From NCBI GenBank assembly GCA_019057385.1, contig JAHQJS010000007.1:512001-576000 (forward strand): a DNA stretch of 64,000 bases, written 5' to 3'. This stretch comes from Candidatus Borrarchaeum weybense. GTDB taxonomy: Archaea > Asgardarchaeota > Sifarchaeia > Borrarchaeales > Borrarchaeaceae. The notes under the pieces are model-generated. The model saw only the letters and a program-made list of their open reading frames with translations. It did not search any database and was not told the origin of the DNA. Of the stretch, positions 7,093-16,227 are shown in pieces (positions within the stretch are counted from its first letter, which is position 1; each line of letters starts with the position of its first letter). Position numbers and translations under genes: made by a program.

Positions 7093-7803
7093 ATGACACG
7101 TGGAATTATTTTTGCACATTCAGATATGACTGAAATATCAGAACCTCTTTATTTTCACCCCGCAACTTTAGATGAGACATTAGTTCACCAAATTGCAATC
7201 AAAGCAGCCACCCTCGTTATGACCACCATAGATCTCTCCATAGATTTTGAAGGCGCTTCATTATTTCAATTTCCCGACAAAGGGATTACTATTTTAGTCT
7301 ACTATTTTCTTTTTTCACTTGAAGAGAATGAAACAGAAAAACAAACCCCTGCAACTATATCTTTGTTAATAGAATCAAAATACGATTGGTTTTTCTTTAA
7401 AGAGATTAAACCTTTAGTACGCCGCATTGCTCTAATAGTAAGAAGAATCAGAGATTCTGGAGAAATTCTAATAGAAGAATTCAAAGAATTGTACAAATTT
7501 CTTAACACGGTGTATCGTCGAGATGAAGACCTTAAAAATTCACGAATTTTTTCGTCCCAAGCGATTAAGAAACCAATTTACATTTCAGATCCTCAAGGAT
7601 TTTTAGATTACTACCCTTATGTCAATCTGGATTTGGGAGATGCGATTATCTCACATCTAATAGATGGCGATGCTACTATAGCAGAACTATCAACGATCTT
7701 GAGTGCCTCATCCTTTGAGCTACTTCCCATATTTCAACGGCTTTTTCGTTATAAACTGATTTCTCTTAAGAATAATGCGTCAGTTTTAGAATTAAAGAAA
7801 TAG
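7093..7803 (+). CDS. Hypothetical protein; putative longin/uDENN-like N-terminal domain plus C-terminal winged HTH
   Basis: GIIFAH...EPLYFHP...IAIKAATLVM...FQFPD...VYYF...ATISLLI pattern resembles Asgard uDENN/longin proteins; C-terminal DGDATIAELSTIL...LFRYKLISL looks like a wHTH. Confidence 0.45.
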   Translation: MTRGIIFAHSDMTEISEPLYFHPATLDETLVHQIAIKAATLVMTTIDLSIDFEGASLFQFPDKGITILVYYFLFSLEENETEKQTPATISLLIESKYDWFFFKEIKPLVRRIALIVRRIRDSGEILIEEFKELYKFLNTVYRRDEDLKNSRIFSSQAIKKPIYISDPQGFLDYYPYVNLDLGDAIISHLIDGDATIAELSTILSASSFELLPIFQRLFRYKLISLKNNASVLELKK

Positions 7804-7962
7804 TAAATTAATGTATAAAATCTCATTTTAAAGAGTTTTTCCCTAAATAATAAATTAAGAACTCTCTAGGATACCAAAGGATTATTTACATTAAGAAGAA
7901 CATCTTTCAGAAGTAAATAGAAACCCCCAATAATTTATTGTATTGTATTTGAGTGATTCACA

Positions 7963-8135
7963 ATGAAAAAAAATAGAAACGTCTAGAAATTAAAGTTCTG
8001 GCTTTAAGTCAAAATGCGCTTCTTGGAGAAAAAAAACATTGGGTGACTTTATGGTTCCTGGAAAAAAACGAAAGGATACATCTCAGACTTTGCAGCAGAT
8101 TTACAGGAATTATATGTACAAAAGACTTTCATTAA
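7963..8135 (+). pseudogene. Possible decayed paralog of the RiPP precursor
   Basis: GAGTGA SD, ATG, A8 run, then TAG AAA CGT CTA GAA ATT AAA GTT CTG = (*)KRLEIKVLALSQNALLG, which aligns without gaps to WEKPEIKELDVEIGVVKG. Confidence 0.3.
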
Positions 8136-8262
8136 GAGAAAAGAATTCTAAAAATGGCTAAGAATATCTCAAAAATACGAAATCCAATTGAGGAAACCGT
8201 TAATTTTAAATATAAGGAGTAAAGATATTAGAAAAAGATTAACGTATCAATTGGTGTTATAC

Positions 8263-8337
8263 ATGAAATGGGAAAAACCAGAAATTAAGGAACTTGATGT
8301 CGAAATTGGAGTCGTCAAGGGATCTTGGGGATTCTAA
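8263..8337 (+). CDS. Putative RiPP precursor peptide MKWEKPEIKELDVEIGVVKGSWGF (24 aa; below ORF-track cutoff)
   Basis: GGTG SD at 8253-8256; WxxPxI/L leader motif typical of RRE-bound lasso/PqqA-type leaders; T-rich tract after the stop; lies between the NTase and kinase genes. Confidence 0.72.
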   Translation: MKWEKPEIKELDVEIGVVKGSWGF

Positions 8338-8370
8338 AATATTTTTTTATTTAATTCCTGCTATTTTTTA
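8338..8370 (+). terminator. T-rich archaeal-type terminator after the precursor gene
   Basis: ATTTTTTTATTT...CTATTTTTTA directly after the TAA. Confidence 0.35.
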
Positions 8371-8468
8371 GTATATTTTGGGCTTAGTCAACTCATATTA
8401 AGCTAGTTTTCAATATAATCTTTTTTAAGATTGAATAAAAAAATCTAAAATACTGGCTAGTTTTAGTA

Positions 8469-9485
8469 CTAATCGTTATTATCGAAAATATCATCTACAG
8501 TTTTTAAAACTTGAGAGTGATTCTTTCCTAAAAATAAATCATAACATTTTATGTTGCGAACTAAACTGTATGCTATTTCAAATATACTTTTGCGAATTGA
8601 TGTGTCCTTTTGTACAGATGGAAATGGATCAAAAACGCAAGGTAGTAATCTTTGAAGTGCTTCCTCTGATGACAATTGTTTATAATTAGACTTTCCAGAA
8701 GTTAAAATCGGAAATGCAATAAATTTAAGCTTAGCTTTTCTTGTTAAACAATTTGCATATATCTCAGTAATGTCAATGTAAGGACGCTTAACTCGTGTTC
8801 CTTTTCTCCTCGTATAAATTTGAAATTCTGAAAATTGTTCAATTATATCTGGCCGGACTTTCAATCTAAGAGGAAAAGCAAAGATCTCAAAAGTAGAATT
8901 TTTACTTAAAATTAGTGGATAATCATCAGACAGAAAATTATAGCCCAATCTTGTCAATATAATTGAGAGTGTGGTTTTTCCGCTACCTGCTTTACCTGGA
9001 AATAGAATTCCCGCGTTATTCTTTGAAGCTGCTGCAGCATGAACACTAAATATCTTTTTTTTAATTAGTTTCTTTGTTAAGATATTCATAATCATGTCTG
9101 TGAGCATATGGTACACTGAAAGATTTTCAACTGTTGAGTATCCGTGATAAATTTCCTGATCTGGATTAGCTAGAAAGATAACATTGCCAGACATACCGTT
9201 TATAATTATCCAACTATCATCTAACACACTAATACTAAATTCCGCTAAATCGTCGGTAAGAATTTCCTTTATCAGTTTGGCTTCTTTTAAACCATAAAAA
9301 TTAATAGGAAACGACTTTAAATCATTCATAATTTGGAAAAATACGTTTGCATCTAAATTTGAATCCTTTATTGAGTTTAACTCGAAATGTTTATAGTCTT
9401 CCAATATTTCATCGTGATAGAAATCTGAATTAGATATGAAATTCAGTCTTACACCATGTACTGATATCTTTGTAATCCTGAACAT
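8469..9485 (-). CDS. HprK-related kinase (lasso-peptide kinase / ScmC-like)
   Basis: VHAAA, P-loop GKAGSGKTT, FLSDDYP di-aspartate, FAFPLRLK. Confidence 0.82.
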   Translation of the reverse strand: MFRITKISVHGVRLNFISNSDFYHDEILEDYKHFELNSIKDSNLDANVFFQIMNDLKSFPINFYGLKEAKLIKEILTDDLAEFSISVLDDSWIIINGMSGNVIFLANPDQEIYHGYSTVENLSVYHMLTDMIMNILTKKLIKKKIFSVHAAAASKNNAGILFPGKAGSGKTTLSIILTRLGYNFLSDDYPLILSKNSTFEIFAFPLRLKVRPDIIEQFSEFQIYTRRKGTRVKRPYIDITEIYANCLTRKAKLKFIAFPILTSGKSNYKQLSSEEALQRLLPCVFDPFPSVQKDTSIRKSIFEIAYSLVRNIKCYDLFLGKNHSQVLKTVDDIFDNND

Positions 9486-9512: not shown

Positions 9513-10061
9513 TCAATTAAAAATATGAAAAAAATTTCCTCTGAGTTTTCGTGATATATTACTTCTAAATATCTTATACTTCTTTAGCTGTTTTGGCCTC
9601 AATTTTGAAACAAATATTTCAAGTAGAAAGCCAATCTTAGTCTTGAAATTAACATTGCTGTACTTATTTTTACTATTTAATTCGATTACTTTAGCAAAAA
9701 CAGATCTAGCTTGAATTGGACGATCAGCAAAATAAGAATTATCTCCTTTGGTTAAGAAATAAGTTGTCTTTAATTTGACTTTCCATAAAACTCTGTGTCC
9801 AATCAATGTTCCTGCTTTTTTAAACAGAATGATATCTCCAATTTTAATTTGTTCAACAGTCACTTTTTGAAAAAAAACTTCTTCTCCATCTTTAATTGAA
9901 GGTTCCATACTTTGTCCACGAAAGGGTAGTTTTACCTTCTTTTGATTTTTCAATGCCCTCAATATTAACTCTAAGCTAATCTTTTCTTCACTTTGTTCTT
10001 CTGTATTTTGTTCACTACTTTTTTTCACAAAAACACCCAACTCAGGACATATAAATCTCAA
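9513..10061 (-). CDS. S24/S26-family peptidase without membrane anchor (probable leader peptidase); likely start GTG at 10028
   Basis: GQSMEPSI (Ser), GHRV (His), TKGDN...D; no N-terminal TM helix. Confidence 0.85.
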   Translation of the reverse strand: MRFICPELGVFVKKSSEQNTEEQSEEKISLELILRALKNQKKVKLPFRGQSMEPSIKDGEEVFFQKVTVEQIKIGDIILFKKAGTLIGHRVLWKVKLKTTYFLTKGDNSYFADRPIQARSVFAKVIELNSKNKYSNVNFKTKIGFLLEIFVSKLRPKQLKKYKIFRSNISRKLRGNFFHIFN

Positions 10062-10262: not shown

Positions 10263-13200
10263 TTGGGAATAACTTGCATAATTAATAAGAAGCCTTATTA
10301 TTATATTTCAAAATTTAAAAATCCAAAAAAAGTTTTTTGCTTCGCTTTTATACTTATCTTCACTTTAAGCATAATATCTTATACTTTTCTTTTTGATAGT
10401 CGTTCACCTCAATTGGAGATTATTTCTCCACTGGACAATTCTACTGTTTTTGGAAACGTTAAGATTGAGGTAAATGCAGAGGCTTATCACGAGATTTATA
10501 GAGTAACATTAAGCATAAATGAGGGTACATCTTCACAGATGGATAAAATTAATGGAAATAGCCAGCAAGGCAAGTATGTTTATGTTTGGAATACGCAGGA
10601 GATTCCCGATGGAACATATGAACTTAATGTTCAATTGATTGACACTTTCGGACATACAACACAAAAACAAATTACAGTATATGTAAAGAACGTTTTTATT
10701 AGTACTTTCAGTAGTTCAGCAAAGGATTCTTCTAATGAATTGGTAACGGATTCAAACCAATACCACTATTTGTCTTTTGATCAGATATCGGAAACTGGTT
10801 TCATAGTGGAAACTGAAGAAATAGAAGAAACATTCAATGTAATTGTTGAAAAAACAGAAAGAGAGGAAGATAGGGTCCTAATATCAGGAGTTTTGTCATT
10901 TAACGGGCCACTTCCAGATGCTTTTTGGTTTAATGTAACAGGAGATACAGGACAGTTATTAAACTATAAATTTAACCCAGAAATTCCAGAAGATGCTATA
11001 TTGCAAATAACTGAGAATGAAGAACCGCCACTCATTATTAAAATAGACGGAAACGCGATAAACGAACAAGAAACCTATCTTTTCGAACTTTATTTTGAGA
11101 ATGACAATGAATTTAACGGTAAAATCAAAGTTGGAACTGGTACAACTGTTGTCTTAGTCTATGAAGCACAAAACGATCCTACTATAGACGGAACATTAAC
11201 TTCTGGAGAGTGGGATGGCGCTTATGTTATGGCATCAGATTGGAAAGCTGAAAATGGAGGAGCATCTCCAACATTTGATATCGCTGCATATATAATGCAG
11301 AACTCCACACATGTTCTTGTTGCTTTTAATATTTCAGATGCCATTATCGTGAGCGATCCCTATGGAGATTATGCAGTAGTTTATTTTGATGTAAATAATG
11401 ATGCTCCACCTCCACAAATTGTTGGTGATCCAGCGATAGATGACCATGGTTATGGTATAGTGAGAACTCCAACTGGAGGACTTCGTGAAGAACGTCAGGG
11501 AATAGGTACCAGCACAGGAAGGGAAGGTTGGGATGATTCAGGCAAATGGCGATATTGGGATATTATTGATCCTCCTTCTGCAGCTTGGAAATCTGGCTTC
11601 TTTGATGACGATACTTATTGGTCAATTGAATTAGCAATTCCTTTTTCTGAACTTGGAGTAACTTCTCAAGATGTAATCGGTATTAAATGTCTATACGGTG
11701 AGAGTGCAACTGAAACGGAATTCGCATGGCCACCTGGTGGCGGAGATCCAGGTGAACCTGTAGGTGATTTGGATGCAGAAGATGACACTGCCAGTTATGG
11801 TGATGCCTATTTGGATATTGATGGTCCAATAGTGTGGAACGTTACAGTAAGTCCTCAACAAGCGATAGAAGGAACTCTTTTCACGTTTACAGCAACTGTT
11901 AATACGACAGCGTCTGAAACGATTACCAGTGTAACAATAGATATTACAGAGCCTGATAAAACACCAGTAGCGTCTATTACTTTATATGATGACGGAACTA
12001 GTAGCGGTGATCTTGTTGCTGGAGATGATATCTGGACAGGCCAGTGGGATTCTACGGGGAATTCAGTTGGAGATTATTATTTATCAGTTGACGCAGAAGA
12101 CATTCAACTTGATTTAACAACAGTAAATAATATGACTTTAGTTGAGATAATAACGTCAGATATTCTACCGCCTGAAATCTCTAATGTTCAAATAACTCCT
12201 TCTGTAGGTCAATCCGGCGATAGTTTCACTATAAATGCTGATGTTACGGATCCTTCTGGTGTTAGTAGCGTGATTGCACATATTCAAACTCCTGATGAAA
12301 CTGATATTGCTACAGTAACTCTATATGACGATGGTTTGCACAATGATGGTGCTGATGATGATGGCACCTATGGAAATACTTGGGACTCCACAGGACAAGC
12401 AGAAGGTACTTATTACGTTGATATCGTTGCAACGGACACTGCTACAAACTCAGGAGAGTTAGAGAACGGAGACACGTTTATTATTGATAACACTGCTCCT
12501 AGTGTATCTAATGTCCAAGTGACACCTTCTGAAGGCCAGTCTGGCACTATTTTCACCATAACCACCGATGTCACTGATACACTTTCAGGTGTTAATAGTG
12601 TGATCGCTTATATCCAAATGCCTGATGAAACTACCATTGCTACTGTAACGCTGTATGATGATGGCTTGCATAATGATGGAGCTACTGGAGATGACACTTA
12701 CGGAAATACTTGGGACTCCACAGGGCAACCTGAAGGTACCTATTATATTGACGTTGTCGCAACAGATAATGCCAGTAATTTAGAAGAGGCTGAAGATGGG
12801 GACACGTTTATAATTGATAACACGCCGCCTGTAGTCTCAAATATTCAAGTATCTCCTTCTGCGGGTCAATCTGGTACAACTTTCATCATCACAGCGGATG
12901 TCTCGGATGCCTTGTCTTTAGTCAGCAGTGTGACGGCCTATATCCAAATGCCTGATGAAACTACCATTGCTACTGTAACGCTGTATGATGATGGCTTGCA
13001 TAATGATGGCACTGCCGGAGATGGCACCTACGGAAACACCTGGGACTCCACAGGACACGCTGAAGGCACCTATTATATTGACATTGTTGCAAGTGATGGT
13101 GTTGGCAATTCAGTAGAGGAGGAAAATGGGGACACGTTTATAATTGATGATAGTCCTCCAAATGTTTCCAATATACAGGTAACTCCTTCTGCCGGTCAAT

Positions 13201-15938
13201 CAGGGACTGTTTTCGTCATAACGGCTGACGTGTCAGACCTGCTCTCAGGAGTCAACAGTGTGACTGCCTATATCCAAATGCCTGACGAAACTACCATTGC
13301 TACCTTACAATTATTTGATGATGGCTTGCATAATGATGGCACTGCCGGAGATGGCACCTACGGAAACACCTGGGACTCCACAGGACAATCATCCGAGATA
13401 TATTTCATTGATATCGTTGCTGATGATAACCTAGGCAATTCAGGAGAAACTGAGAACGTTGACACATTTATTGTTGACGATGACCCACCTACACTTCCCG
13501 ATCCTTTTGTACCACAACAATCAGTTGAATATCCTAATGACCAAGATGATGTCACTATAACAATTCCAGATCCAATTGACCTTTCACCCATTGCTGTCTA
13601 CCTTAATTATACAATAAATGGAAACCCGCAATCTTCAATACTTATGCAATATGGTAGTTCATATAGCGGTACAATACCTGCCCAGCCTGCAGGTACAACA
13701 GTAACATACTTCTTTCATATTTTTGATAGTGCTGGAAATGATCTGGTTAATTCTAGTTCGGCTTATGCATATATTGTCGACGGTGCCCCACCTGAGATCT
13801 CAAATGTTCAAGTTACACCCTCTAGTGGTCAATCGGGGACTGTTTTCGTCATAACGGCTGATGTGTCAGACCTGCTCTCAGGAGTCAGCAGTGTGACTGC
13901 CTATATCCAAATACCTGATGAAACAACCATTGCTACAGTAACGCTGTATGACGATGGTTTGCACAATGATGGTGCTGCTGAAGATGGCACCTACGGAAAC
14001 ACCTGGGACTCCACAGGACAATCATCCGAGATATATTTCATTGATATCGTTGCTGATGATAATGCCAGCAACTCAGGCGAACTGGAGAATGGAAACACTT
14101 TTATCATTGATGACGATCCTCCTCAGGTTTCGAACGTTCAAGTTACGCCCTCTACAGGTCAACCTGGCACTATTTTCACCATAACCGCCGATGTCACTGA
14201 TACACTTTCTGATGTCATTAGTGTAACTGCTTATATCCAAATGCCTGATGAAACTACCATTGCTACAGTAACGCTGTATGATGATGGCTTGCATAATGAT
14301 GGAACTACTGGAGATGACACTTACGGAAATACCTGGGACTCCACAGGACAATCTATCGGTACCTTCTATATAGATATTGAAGCGGTAGATACTCTCGGTA
14401 ATTCTGGTGAGACTGAGAATGGAGCTATTTTTGCGACTGATGATACGCCGCCTGCAGTCTCAAACATTCAAGTATCTCCCTCTGCAGGTCAATCTGGTAC
14501 AATTTATACCATCACGGCGGATGTTTCGGATGCCCTGTCTGGAGTCAGCAGTGTGACTGCCTATATCCAAATACCCGATGAGACAACCATTGCTACAGTA
14601 ACGCTGTATGATGATGGCTTGCATAATGATGGTATTGCCGGAGATGGCACCTACGGAAACACCTGGGACTCCACAGGACAAGTTGATGGTACTTATTATA
14701 TTGATATCGTTGCAAGTGATGGTATTGGCAATTCAGTAGAGGAGGAAAATGGAGACACGTTTATAATTGATGATAATCCTCCAAATGTTTCCAATATTCA
14801 GGTAACTCCCTCTGCCGGTCAATCTGGTACAATTTATACCATCACAGCGGATGTTTCGGATGCCCTGTCTGGAGTCAGCAGCGTGACTGCCTATATCCAA
14901 ATGCCTGATGAAACAAACATAGCAACATTACAATTATTTGATGATGGAGCACATAGTGATGGATTAGCTGGAGATGGTACCTATGGAAACACATGGGACT
15001 CCACAGGTCAATCATCAGAGATATATTACATTGACATTGTTGCTGATGATAGCCTAGGCAATTCAGGAGAGACAGAGAACGGTGAAACATTGATTGTTGA
15101 CGATGACCCACCTACACTTCCTCCTGATTTTGAGCCACAACAATCAGTTATTGATCCAGATGATCAGGAAGCTGTCACCATTATAATACAAGATCCTCTC
15201 GATCTTTCGATTAGTGAGGTATATCTTAACTACACAACGAATGGAAACCCACAACCTTCAATACTTATGCAATATGGTAGTTCATATAGCGGTACAATAC
15301 CTGCCCAGCCTGCAGGTACAACAGTAGCATACTTCTTTCATATTTTTGATAGCGCTGGTAATGATTTAATTGAAAATAATGGTGGTTTGAACTATACATA
15401 CACAGTAAGCAGTTCTGGCGGTGGAGGAGGTGGCGGAGACGGTAGCAGTAGCAATGGTGACGGCGACAGTAGCAGTGGTAATGGAGGAAGCAAGACAACT
15501 GCAAAAACAATGATATTAACATTACTAACTGAAATTCCTTCTGCTGTTACTCAAGGTACAAGAGTCACTGTGAAATTTAGTTTAACAGATGAATCTGAGA
15601 ATGGCATAGAAGGTGCAATTGTTTCCTTAACGATAGCCAATGAATCAATAGTTTGCACTGATTTAGGAGATGGAATATATACCACTATGATTGACACTTC
15701 TGGTCTATCTCCAAGCGACTATACTGTATCAATCTCAGCAAGCAGTGAAGGCTATGAGTCAAAAACTACTACTTTCACTCTTACAGTAACTCAACAAGTT
15801 CCGTTGATTTTAGTAGGAGCAGGAGGCGTAATTGCAGCATGTGCAGTTCTTGGTATAATTCTGGTCTTAAAAAACGCTGGTATAATTTTTTCAAAAAAAT
15901 TAGCTTCATATTACCAGAAAATTCATCAAATGACCTAG
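10263..15938 (+). CDS. 1891-aa acidic cell-surface protein: Ig-like domain, DOMON/CBM9-like domain, nine LYDDG-type (choice-of-anchor X-like) repeats, Gly/Ser linker, Ig-like domain, C-terminal TM
   Basis: N-terminal hydrophobic segment; PTIDGTLTSGEW...WSIELAIPFSELG; repeated TLYDDGLHNDG..GDGTYGNTWDSTG; C-terminal LILVGAGGVIAACAVLGIILV. Confidence 0.85.
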   Translation: MGITCIINKKPYYYISKFKNPKKVFCFAFILIFTLSIISYTFLFDSRSPQLEIISPLDNSTVFGNVKIEVNAEAYHEIYRVTLSINEGTSSQMDKINGNSQQGKYVYVWNTQEIPDGTYELNVQLIDTFGHTTQKQITVYVKNVFISTFSSSAKDSSNELVTDSNQYHYLSFDQISETGFIVETEEIEETFNVIVEKTEREEDRVLISGVLSFNGPLPDAFWFNVTGDTGQLLNYKFNPEIPEDAILQITENEEPPLIIKIDGNAINEQETYLFELYFENDNEFNGKIKVGTGTTVVLVYEAQNDPTIDGTLTSGEWDGAYVMASDWKAENGGASPTFDIAAYIMQNSTHVLVAFNISDAIIVSDPYGDYAVVYFDVNNDAPPPQIVGDPAIDDHGYGIVRTPTGGLREERQGIGTSTGREGWDDSGKWRYWDIIDPPSAAWKSGFFDDDTYWSIELAIPFSELGVTSQDVIGIKCLYGESATETEFAWPPGGGDPGEPVGDLDAEDDTASYGDAYLDIDGPIVWNVTVSPQQAIEGTLFTFTATVNTTASETITSVTIDITEPDKTPVASITLYDDGTSSGDLVAGDDIWTGQWDSTGNSVGDYYLSVDAEDIQLDLTTVNNMTLVEIITSDILPPEISNVQITPSVGQSGDSFTINADVTDPSGVSSVIAHIQTPDETDIATVTLYDDGLHNDGADDDGTYGNTWDSTGQAEGTYYVDIVATDTATNSGELENGDTFIIDNTAPSVSNVQVTPSEGQSGTIFTITTDVTDTLSGVNSVIAYIQMPDETTIATVTLYDDGLHNDGATGDDTYGNTWDSTGQPEGTYYIDVVATDNASNLEEAEDGDTFIIDNTPPVVSNIQVSPSAGQSGTTFIITADVSDALSLVSSVTAYIQMPDETTIATVTLYDDGLHNDGTAGDGTYGNTWDSTGHAEGTYYIDIVASDGVGNSVEEENGDTFIIDDSPPNVSNIQVTPSAGQSGTVFVITADVSDLLSGVNSVTAYIQMPDETTIATLQLFDDGLHNDGTAGDGTYGNTWDSTGQSSEIYFIDIVADDNLGNSGETENVDTFIVDDDPPTLPDPFVPQQSVEYPNDQDDVTITIPDPIDLSPIAVYLNYTINGNPQSSILMQYGSSYSGTIPAQPAGTTVTYFFHIFDSAGNDLVNSSSAYAYIVDGAPPEISNVQVTPSSGQSGTVFVITADVSDLLSGVSSVTAYIQIPDETTIATVTLYDDGLHNDGAAEDGTYGNTWDSTGQSSEIYFIDIVADDNASNSGELENGNTFIIDDDPPQVSNVQVTPSTGQPGTIFTITADVTDTLSDVISVTAYIQMPDETTIATVTLYDDGLHNDGTTGDDTYGNTWDSTGQSIGTFYIDIEAVDTLGNSGETENGAIFATDDTPPAVSNIQVSPSAGQSGTIYTITADVSDALSGVSSVTAYIQIPDETTIATVTLYDDGLHNDGIAGDGTYGNTWDSTGQVDGTYYIDIVASDGIGNSVEEENGDTFIIDDNPPNVSNIQVTPSAGQSGTIYTITADVSDALSGVSSVTAYIQMPDETNIATLQLFDDGAHSDGLAGDGTYGNTWDSTGQSSEIYYIDIVADDSLGNSGETENGETLIVDDDPPTLPPDFEPQQSVIDPDDQEAVTIIIQDPLDLSISEVYLNYTTNGNPQPSILMQYGSSYSGTIPAQPAGTTVAYFFHIFDSAGNDLIENNGGLNYTYTVSSSGGGGGGGDGSSSNGDGDSSSGNGGSKTTAKTMILTLLTEIPSAVTQGTRVTVKFSLTDESENGIEGAIVSLTIANESIVCTDLGDGIYTTMIDTSGLSPSDYTVSISASSEGYESKTTTFTLTVTQQVPLILVGAGGVIAACAVLGIILVLKNAGIIFSKKLASYYQKIHQMT
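11815..15410 (+). repeat. Intragenic ~330-bp tandem repeats with a 1623-bp higher-order duplication
   Basis: Nine ~110-aa units; TGACCCACCTACACTTCC at 13481 and 15104 gives the 1623-bp period. Confidence 0.9.
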
Positions 15939-15963
15939 AAAAAGCAAAATTGGGGTATAAAAA

Positions 15964-16227
15964 ATTCTCCCGAAAACTAGTGAAGATATAGTATGGAAAA
16001 AGAATAATGACAAAATCGTTATATTTGATGCTAAAAGTGGAAAATTGTTTGAACTCAGTGAAACAGCCGCATACATATGGGAATTATGTGATGGACAAAA
16101 AACAGAAGACGACATAATTTCAATTTTAGCCAAAGAATTTAACAAAGATGAAGCAGATATCAGAGGAGACGTCATGGAATTTATGGAAGAGATGTATCAG
16201 AAAGGATTTCTTGATAAGAATACCTAA
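15964..16227 (+). CDS. Stand-alone PqqD/RiPP recognition element (RRE); 5' end lacks an in-frame canonical start
   Basis: In-frame ILPKTSEDIVWKKNNDKIVIFDAKSGKLFELSETAAYIWELCDGQKTEDDII...DVMEFMEEMYQKGFL is a classic PqqD pattern; in-frame TAA at 15958. Confidence 0.88.
   Translation: MLPKTSEDIVWKKNNDKIVIFDAKSGKLFELSETAAYIWELCDGQKTEDDIISILAKEFNKDEADIRGDVMEFMEEMYQKGFLDKNT

Follow-up and report, generated by a model that had tools for sequence, protein, structure and literature searches.

In the window, by which we mean the whole stretch of 64,000 nucleotides analysed here, a gene of 24 codons occupies the spacer between the genes of a 236-aa protein and of an HprK-like kinase. The nucleotidyltransferase (NTP_transf_5) and 236-aa genes lie upstream of it on the same strand, the kinase and peptidase genes lie downstream and convergent to it, and the RRE gene is found 7.6 kb away, behind the 5.7-kb gene of a surface protein. 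The 5' flank is an island of sugar-nucleotide and aminotransferase genes, and the whole locus is situated inside a glycosylation island. The features are as follows (Lpp names refer to the linear polyphosphorylated peptide, LPP, published in May 2026 by Popov et al. in Nat Commun, PMC13381572):

5750-6883, forward strand: NTP_transf_5 nucleotidyltransferase, LppN/PsmN-like (PF14907, 1.2e-34), syntenic in L007, L011 and L062
7093-7803, forward strand: 236-aa Asgard-specific protein, directly upstream of the precursor gene and syntenic in every locus
7946-8030, forward strand: decayed second precursor gene (SD-like GAGTGAT, ATG at 7963, TAG at the Trp codon, 21-nt internal deletion)
8186-8212, forward strand: conserved upstream block ending in TATA-like TTTAAATA (8205-8212), about 55 nt 5' of the ATG
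8253-8256, forward strand: Shine-Dalgarno-like motif GGTG, 6 nt 5' of the ATG
8263-8337, forward strand: 24-codon precursor gene (LppA-like), reading MKWEKPEIKELDVEIGVVKGSWGF plus TAA
8263-8316 and 8317-8334: predicted leader (M1-V18) and predicted core (K19-F24), the boundary being derived from the LPP spacing (PMC13381572)
8323-8325 and 8335-8337, forward strand: Ser21 codon TCT and stop codon
8342-8369, forward strand: two oligo-T tracts 3' of the stop (T7, 8342-8348; T6, 8364-8369)
8469-9485, reverse strand: HprK-like (ScmC-type) kinase, 338 aa (PF27840/ScmC; TIGR04352, 1.2e-11; P-loop GKAGSGKT and an Asp-Asp pair)
9513-10061, reverse strand: soluble archaeal-type signal peptidase I, LppS-like (S24/S26 peptidase; Ser50, His88, Asp106)
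10263-15938, forward strand: Big-domain surface protein, 1891 aa, between the peptidase and RRE genes, in the same arrangement in L007 and L061
15964-16227, forward strand: discrete PqqD-family RRE, 87 codons (PF05402, 1.5e-20), about 25 nt after the surface-protein gene and syntenic in L007 and L061

The signals around the small gene are shared with related loci. GGTGAT stands at an equal distance before the ATG in L007, in all three copies of L010 and in L011, and an ATG with GGTG(AT) 6-8 nt upstream is kept in all copies (n=6). The block at 8186-8212 is nearly invariant between the window, L007 and the first copy of L010, whereas the adjoining intergenic DNA diverges; we infer that it is an archaeal BRE/TATA promoter for the precursor gene. 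The first oligo-T tract (T7) is kept in L007 and L010, and the T7 and T6 tracts likely act as an archaeal terminator.

Conservation of the precursor gene

The region 7700-8600 is overlapped by 14 ORFs of at least 20 aa, among which size alone is uninformative; the precursor ORF is lifted above chance because it is conserved between loci. Contigs syntenic with the window (L007/L008/L009, L010, L011, L061 and L062) were obtained through relatives of the kinase and the peptidase and through the 236-aa protein. Among 5.8 billion proteins, close relatives numbered two for the kinase and three for the peptidase. Five other public contigs (L007/L009, L010, L011 and L062) carry this small gene in the equivalent position. 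Every syntenic contig that includes the spacer between the genes of the 236-aa protein and of the kinase has it there, either singly or in a tandem array of three that have a common leader and differing tails. The L062 precursor is an identical copy of that in the window, those of L007 and L009 end in SWGW, and that of L011 ends in SFGPGF; the three tandem copies of L010 comprise one with the SWGF tail and two in which the Ser is followed by a long tail, of 19 and 23 residues respectively. The six archaeal peptides, which come from four distinct loci, follow the pattern W-x-K-P-E-[IV]-K-[ED]-L-[DN]-V-E-[IV]-G-x-x-x-x-S; Gly16 and Ser21 are invariant in all six, and the tails after the Ser vary from 3 to 23 residues. 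Gene callers left the precursor ORF uncalled in L007, L009 and L062, and called the two longer paralogues of L010.

Over the stretch from Trp to Ser (19 codons), the changes between orthologues by codon position are 0/0/4, 0/0/5 and 0/1/7. As a proof of the frame, this third-codon-position test does not suffice: one of the antisense frames has its wobble positions in common with the sense frame and contains no stop in any copy, so that the wobble pattern alone leaves the strand unfixed. The open antisense frame, like the failure of gene callers in three assemblies, would also suit a conserved regulatory element, an RNA or an antisense small ORF in place of a peptide gene. We regard such an explanation as highly improbable. 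The sense frame is fixed because an ATG with its SD motif stands before every one of the six copies, because the Ser is retained across a switch of codon family (TCT/TCC in the short precursors, AGT in the long ones), because the amino-acid changes between paralogues are conservative in the sense frame only, and because the leader matches known RRE-binding leaders (see below); moreover, the stops are followed by T tracts, and the antisense ORF has neither a conserved start nor a conserved end. By this measure the ORF of 24 codons is a genuine, conserved gene.

These results bear out the 24-aa ORF that the initial annotation had placed here, its translation being as described and conserved in five other contigs, and the three signals attributed to it are recovered as well: an SD (GGTG, 8253-8256), a leader motif (W-x-K-P) and a terminator-like T tract (T7/T6). 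The alignment of short ORFs across homologous loci, which that annotation had called for, found the ORF conserved with orthologue changes mainly at the third codon position.

Upstream of the intact gene, the decayed copy at 7946-8030 gave local alignment scores of 39 and 36 against copies 2 and 3 of L010 (shuffled maximum 30 and 34, respectively). A leader profile run over 400 genomes of the phylum matched the window's own genome only, all other matches having E > 0.03. In 60 related genomes the kinase had no close relative but weak HprK-like matches, the short flanks of which were without a precursor.

L011 carries a diverged allele of the locus: its kinase, peptidase and NTP transferase are 41%, 43% and 36% identical to those of the window, and its NTP transferase gene is also inverted. 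The 236-aa gene of L011 is 94% identical to that of the window, and the 236-aa gene, the spacer and the leader form a single DNA block of 87% identity (3483-4724 in L011 versus 7093-8324 in the window). This block stops at 8324, inside the Ser codon, and therefore the junction between leader and core coincides with the divergence breakpoint; its end points to a recombination or divergence breakpoint at the leader/core junction.

Enzymes and other neighbours

The kinase and peptidase genes are separated by 27 nt and adjoin each other in every locus. The peptidase, the true start of which may be at about 10028, matched TIGR02228 with 59.7 bits (cut-off 51.85) over the profile positions of the catalytic core only (36-122). 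Its Ser50, His88 and Asp106 align to SEC11A, and it has no hydrophobic membrane anchor. The housekeeping full-length Sec11-type enzyme of the genome is a separate protein encoded on contig C4 (104 bits). By phmmer, the peptidase scored 32-49 bits against the peptidases of LPP loci versus 17 bits against the Sec11 of its own genome, and short SpI genes taken from LPP loci of Paenibacillaceae resemble the archaeal enzyme in matching TIGR02228 at positions 38-12x only (51-64 bits). In a maximum-likelihood tree the peptidases fell into four clean groups (SipW, Asgard Sec11, Bacillota LppS-like and archaeal RiPP-linked), and a branch of the unrooted tree with 95/87 support separated SipW plus Asgard Sec11 from the Bacillota LppS-like plus the archaeal RiPP-linked enzymes; the tool warned of long-branch attraction, and the joint grouping of the latter two clades may be due to it. 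In three Paenibacillus genomes, a Sarcina genome and a deltaproteobacterial MAG, a search for an archaeal-type SpI gave no match above the family cut-off.

The best relatives of the RRE with a solved structure are lasso B1 proteins (TbiB1, 7e-6). The Asp equivalent to D70 of LppB is conserved, and the equivalent of Asn33 is Ser in the window and L061 and Asn in L007. The RRE gene starts with ATT in the window (region 15958-15969) versus ATG in L007 (2210-2222) and L061; the next in-frame canonical start is a TTG at 16045, from which translation would yield a protein without its first two beta strands. Possible explanations of the ATT are a rare start codon, an error of assembly or sequencing, or the loss of a start codon. 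In three loci the giant Big-domain gene is divergent from the peptidase gene and is followed by the RRE gene (10263-16227 in the window, 1956-6678 in L007 and 1299-6305 in L061), an arrangement that suggests co-transcription of the RRE with the surface protein. A complex prediction for the peptidase, the RRE and the 24-aa precursor kept its score when an unrelated protein replaced the peptidase, and thus speaks neither for nor against binding.

The archaeal enzymes are distant from their counterparts in Bacillota LPP loci, with identities of 24-38% for the peptidase, 28% for the RRE, 21-27% for the kinase (Paenibacillaceae) and 25% for the NTP transferase; paeninodin-type kinases stand a little nearer to the kinase of the window (32% by BLASTP). 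A search of 1.84 billion proteins for remote kinase relatives led to other PqqD-linked contexts and to no further archaeal LPP-like locus. Two of these cassettes, with kinases 29-33% identical to that of the window, consist of PqqD, Transglut_core3, radical SAM/SPASM and kinase genes in one case, and of PqqD, DUF3108 and kinase genes in the other (L126, 511-3359; L128, 358-2552).

The 236-aa protein belongs to no Pfam or NCBIfam family, nothing like it was found in a search of reference genomes, and its family is assigned to Promethearchaeota by Atlas. Its AlphaFold model has a mean pLDDT of 42, too poor for use. The idea that its C-terminus forms a second RRE was dropped (no family of Pfam or NCBIfam matched, hhalign assigned the comparison with the RRE a probability of 0.25%, and the Atlas leads were < 0.9). 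Homologues with 58% identity occur without precursor or kinase at two further loci (L014, 422-1117; L015, 6001-6696); in both a cupin gene follows, and in L015 the homologue comes after an ArsR-type regulator and a MacB-like ABC transporter. The 236-aa protein may be a regulator and not a part of the pathway.

Comparison with LPP, lasso and PqqA systems

The LPP system of Paenibacillus alginolyticus (LppA/K/B/S/N/D) comprises, besides the precursor, the SpI-like LppS, the discrete RRE LppB, the HprK-like LppK, the uncharacterised NTP transferase LppN and the MsbA-like pump LppD. LPP clusters sit in capsule loci and encode between one and three precursors, 35-200 aa long, that follow the consensus YxxPxVLxHQxIxFETxxS. 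Within the core, Ser3 is polyphosphorylated by LppK. Cleavage by LppS falls after T-1, which places Y at -16, and requires presentation of the leader by LppB; the unphosphorylated precursor is poorly cut, and substitutions of core residues 1-5 left cleavage unimpaired. LPPs were called restricted to Bacillota, and in the supplement Thermoproteota are represented by housekeeping peptidases only, without RRE or kinase (all PMC13381572). A survey of archaeal RiPPs makes no mention of LPP-like clusters.

Of the five core genes of LPP clusters, four (kinase, SpI, RRE and NTP_transf_5) are present in the window, in a genomic setting of the same kind, and a cyclase is missing from both systems. Both have several precursors with a constant N-terminus and a variable tail (three in L010, one plus a decayed one in the window). 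Both share the motif aromatic-xx-Pro and a Ser 18 residues after its aromatic residue (position 19 if that residue is numbered 1), which corresponds to W3 and S21 in all six archaeal peptides. W3, P6, I8 and S21 of the archaeal precursor fall into the same columns as in the Paenibacillaceae LPP precursors that we fetched, and a MAFFT alignment of archaeal, LPP and lasso precursors was ungapped over the leader, with no Ser of the lasso precursors in the Ser column.

There are also differences. The host is an Asgard archaeon and not a member of Bacillota, and the leader has WxxP where LPPs have YxxP. The remainder of the consensus (VLxHQxIxFET) is absent, the archaeal leader reading K-E-L-D-V-E-I-G-V-V there, so that the predicted -3/-2/-1 residues are G-V-V in the window versus F-E-T in LPPs. 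The core has about six residues, and the short precursors have 24-28 aa compared with the reported 35-200 aa. The archaeal kinase is longer by about 75 residues, which lie N-terminal of the P-loop, the RRE gene is set apart by the giant surface-protein gene, and the enzymes are 21-38% identical to those of Bacillota. Furthermore, the window's contig (C7) has no MsbA-like exporter (PF00664), nor was one found among the scanned neighbours, the matches in the genome being on contig C4 only. A short precursor was also seen in a Paenibacillaceae LPP locus (L110, 8513-8596, reverse strand), with 27 aa and a predicted core of 7 residues, below the published range.

A DNA search with a degenerate pattern for W-[EK]-K-P-E-[IV]-K-[ED]-L gave eight matches in a 596-Gb genome collection, five of which are small ORFs ending in Ser. 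At the examined loci of Paenibacillus forsythiae and Sarcina an Asn-synthase-like cyclase and an ABC transporter adjoin, in Paenibacillus together with an HprK kinase, and the matching precursors there are of the paeninodin lasso type. Leaders near-identical to the archaeal one (W-E/K-K-P-E-V-K-E/D-L) were observed in four lasso precursors from Paenibacillus and Sarcina (L046, 3808-3948; L049, 435-611; L051, 7131-7367; L048, 6539-6709), which end in Ser; both L046 and L048 have an Asn-synthase-like cyclase as neighbour, L046 an HprK kinase as well. In view of these near-identical leaders, the archaeal leader belongs to the RRE-binding [Y/W]xxP type, of which WxxP is the paeninodin signature (PMC13381572).

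With the paeninodin and pseudomycoidin systems (PadeK, PsmK, PsmN) the archaeal locus shares the WxxP leader, an HprK-like Ser kinase, a PqqD/B1-type RRE and a nucleotidyltransferase of the PsmN type, which in pseudomycoidin is required for the addition of hexoses to the phospho-Ser (PMC6993621). It differs from them in the absence of an Asn-synthase-like cyclase, of a B2 cysteine peptidase and of an Asp/Glu ring acceptor at core position 7-9, in the position of the Ser, which is internal and near the leader but C-terminal in lasso precursors, and in its peptidase, a serine SpI. The B2 peptidase (Transglut_core3, PF13471) had no match in the genome, and Asn-synthase (PF00733) had none in the window, the nearest being about 276 kb beyond the window end. 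With no B2 peptidase, no cyclase in the window and a tail of six residues that is too short and holds no Asp/Glu, a lasso peptide was excluded, as the initial annotation had already maintained. The gene might instead be an orphan or relic of a paeninodin-type lasso precursor from Bacillota, left without cyclase or B2 peptidase and with little of its core, as would fit the leader and the slightly closer paeninodin-type kinases. This we consider very unlikely: the tail is under purifying selection with its Ser invariant, each locus retains the gene alongside kinase and peptidase genes that are intact, and neither the genome (Transglut_core3) nor the window (Asn-synthase) nor the Ser column of the lasso precursors agrees with such an origin.

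PqqA, in which a Glu-Tyr pair becomes cross-linked, resembles the archaeal precursor in its N-terminal K-W-x-K-P motif and its PqqD-fold partner. The precursor scored 15.7 bits against the Pfam family PqqA (PF08042; cut-off 21.1), over residues 2-13 only, and the families of PqqB, PqqC and PqqE had no match among the ten neighbouring gene products scanned. The archaeal peptide has no Tyr, and therefore the Glu-Tyr pair of PqqA cannot be present.

Core, cut site and fate of the peptide

Taken as a whole, the ORF is probably a translated, LppA-analogous precursor of an LPP-type RiPP pathway in an Asgard archaeon, and the system is best described as an archaeal LPP variant with a minimal core. 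By analogy with the Paenibacillus system, the leader motif W3-x-x-P6-x-I8 would be bound by the discrete PqqD-type RRE, the HprK-like kinase would add one or more phosphates to Ser21, and the soluble SpI-like peptidase together with the RRE would cut V18|K19, two residues before the Ser, to give the phosphorylated hexapeptide KGSWGF, the phosphate of which the NTP_transf_5 enzyme may decorate further. Ser21, which the initial annotation had named as the kinase acceptor, is well supported in this role by the comparison with LPPs and is the best candidate for it, since it is invariant in 6/6 archaeal peptides and aligns with the phosphorylated core Ser3 (PMC13381572).

Because LPP precursors are cut two residues before the Ser and the spacing from the aromatic residue to the Ser is identical, homology gives KGSWGF as the core and V18|K19 as the cut; under the same spacing the cores would start with A-K-S and A-L-S in the long paralogues of L010 and with K-G-S in L011. 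As F-E-T is absent at -3/-2/-1, together with the rest of the LPP motif, the cut site is an extrapolation, and we would give V18|K19 not quite an even chance. The initial annotation had proposed a cut two residues further on, G20|S21, according to the small-x-small rule of S26 peptidases (V-K-G), which would yield the tetrapeptide SWGF with a phosphorylated N-terminal Ser. The V at -3 and the G at -1 do suit the preference of signal peptidases in the four peptides of the SWGF/SWGW/SFGPGF type, and the Ser is invariant. However, the two longer paralogues with the common leader read L-A-K and L-A-L at the same positions (K or L at -1), the characterised LPP cut lies two residues before the Ser and tolerates substitutions of core residues 1-5 (PMC13381572), and the aromatic-to-Ser spacing is identical in archaeal and LPP precursors. 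A cut at G20|S21 with release of the tetrapeptide is accordingly unlikely in our estimate, and the 4-residue core is probably two residues off. The same annotation had assigned the product to a different class; it is indeed a non-lasso class, but one that is no longer new, having been published in May 2026 as LPP.

What remains of the probability for the cut falls to other sites (e.g., after the invariant Gly16) or to no cleavage at all. A peptide that is modified and stays uncleaved, or is cut elsewhere, could function as the whole 24-mer or as an octapeptide, for example as a phospho-Ser carrier of glycans. Gly16 is invariant in 6/6 peptides, an exporter is missing, the locus is embedded in sugar-nucleotide genes, and a PsmN-type enzyme is needed for the hexoses on the phospho-Ser of pseudomycoidin (PMC6993621), all of which would fit. 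On the other hand, a dedicated soluble SpI with an intact triad, its gene separated by 27 nt from that of the kinase in every locus, argues for processing, as does the LPP precedent of a cut with the aromatic residue at -16, and we hold a function of this kind to be rather improbable.

A cut LPP-type peptide need not leave the cell either. In an exporter-less LPP-like Asgard module, the phosphorylated mini-peptide of about six residues would be a cell-bound intermediate and not a secreted natural product, a proposal that we put forward as doubtful. One possibility is that such an intermediate serves as a phospho-Ser primer for glycan assembly by the NTP_transf_5 enzyme and the glycosylation genes; another is that it becomes attached as a tag to the giant surface protein, the gene of which always lies between those of the peptidase and the RRE. 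If the intermediate is cell-bound, the soluble RiPP-type SpI may be an old archaeal invention that was later acquired by Bacillota.

With the LPP class itself already in print, what is new here is most likely the Asgard archaeal host and the unusually short core. Precursors of this size are missed by gene callers, as the loci described above show. The occurrence of a W-type leader alongside a peptidase of the LPP type is relevant to the published idea that Y marks LPP and W marks lasso pathways, and a precursor of 24 residues with a core of about six would be a minimal substrate that could ease the dissection of the kinase, peptidase and NTP-transferase steps by mass spectrometry. An archaeal version would extend the LPP class to another domain of life, and within it to the lineage closest to eukaryotes.
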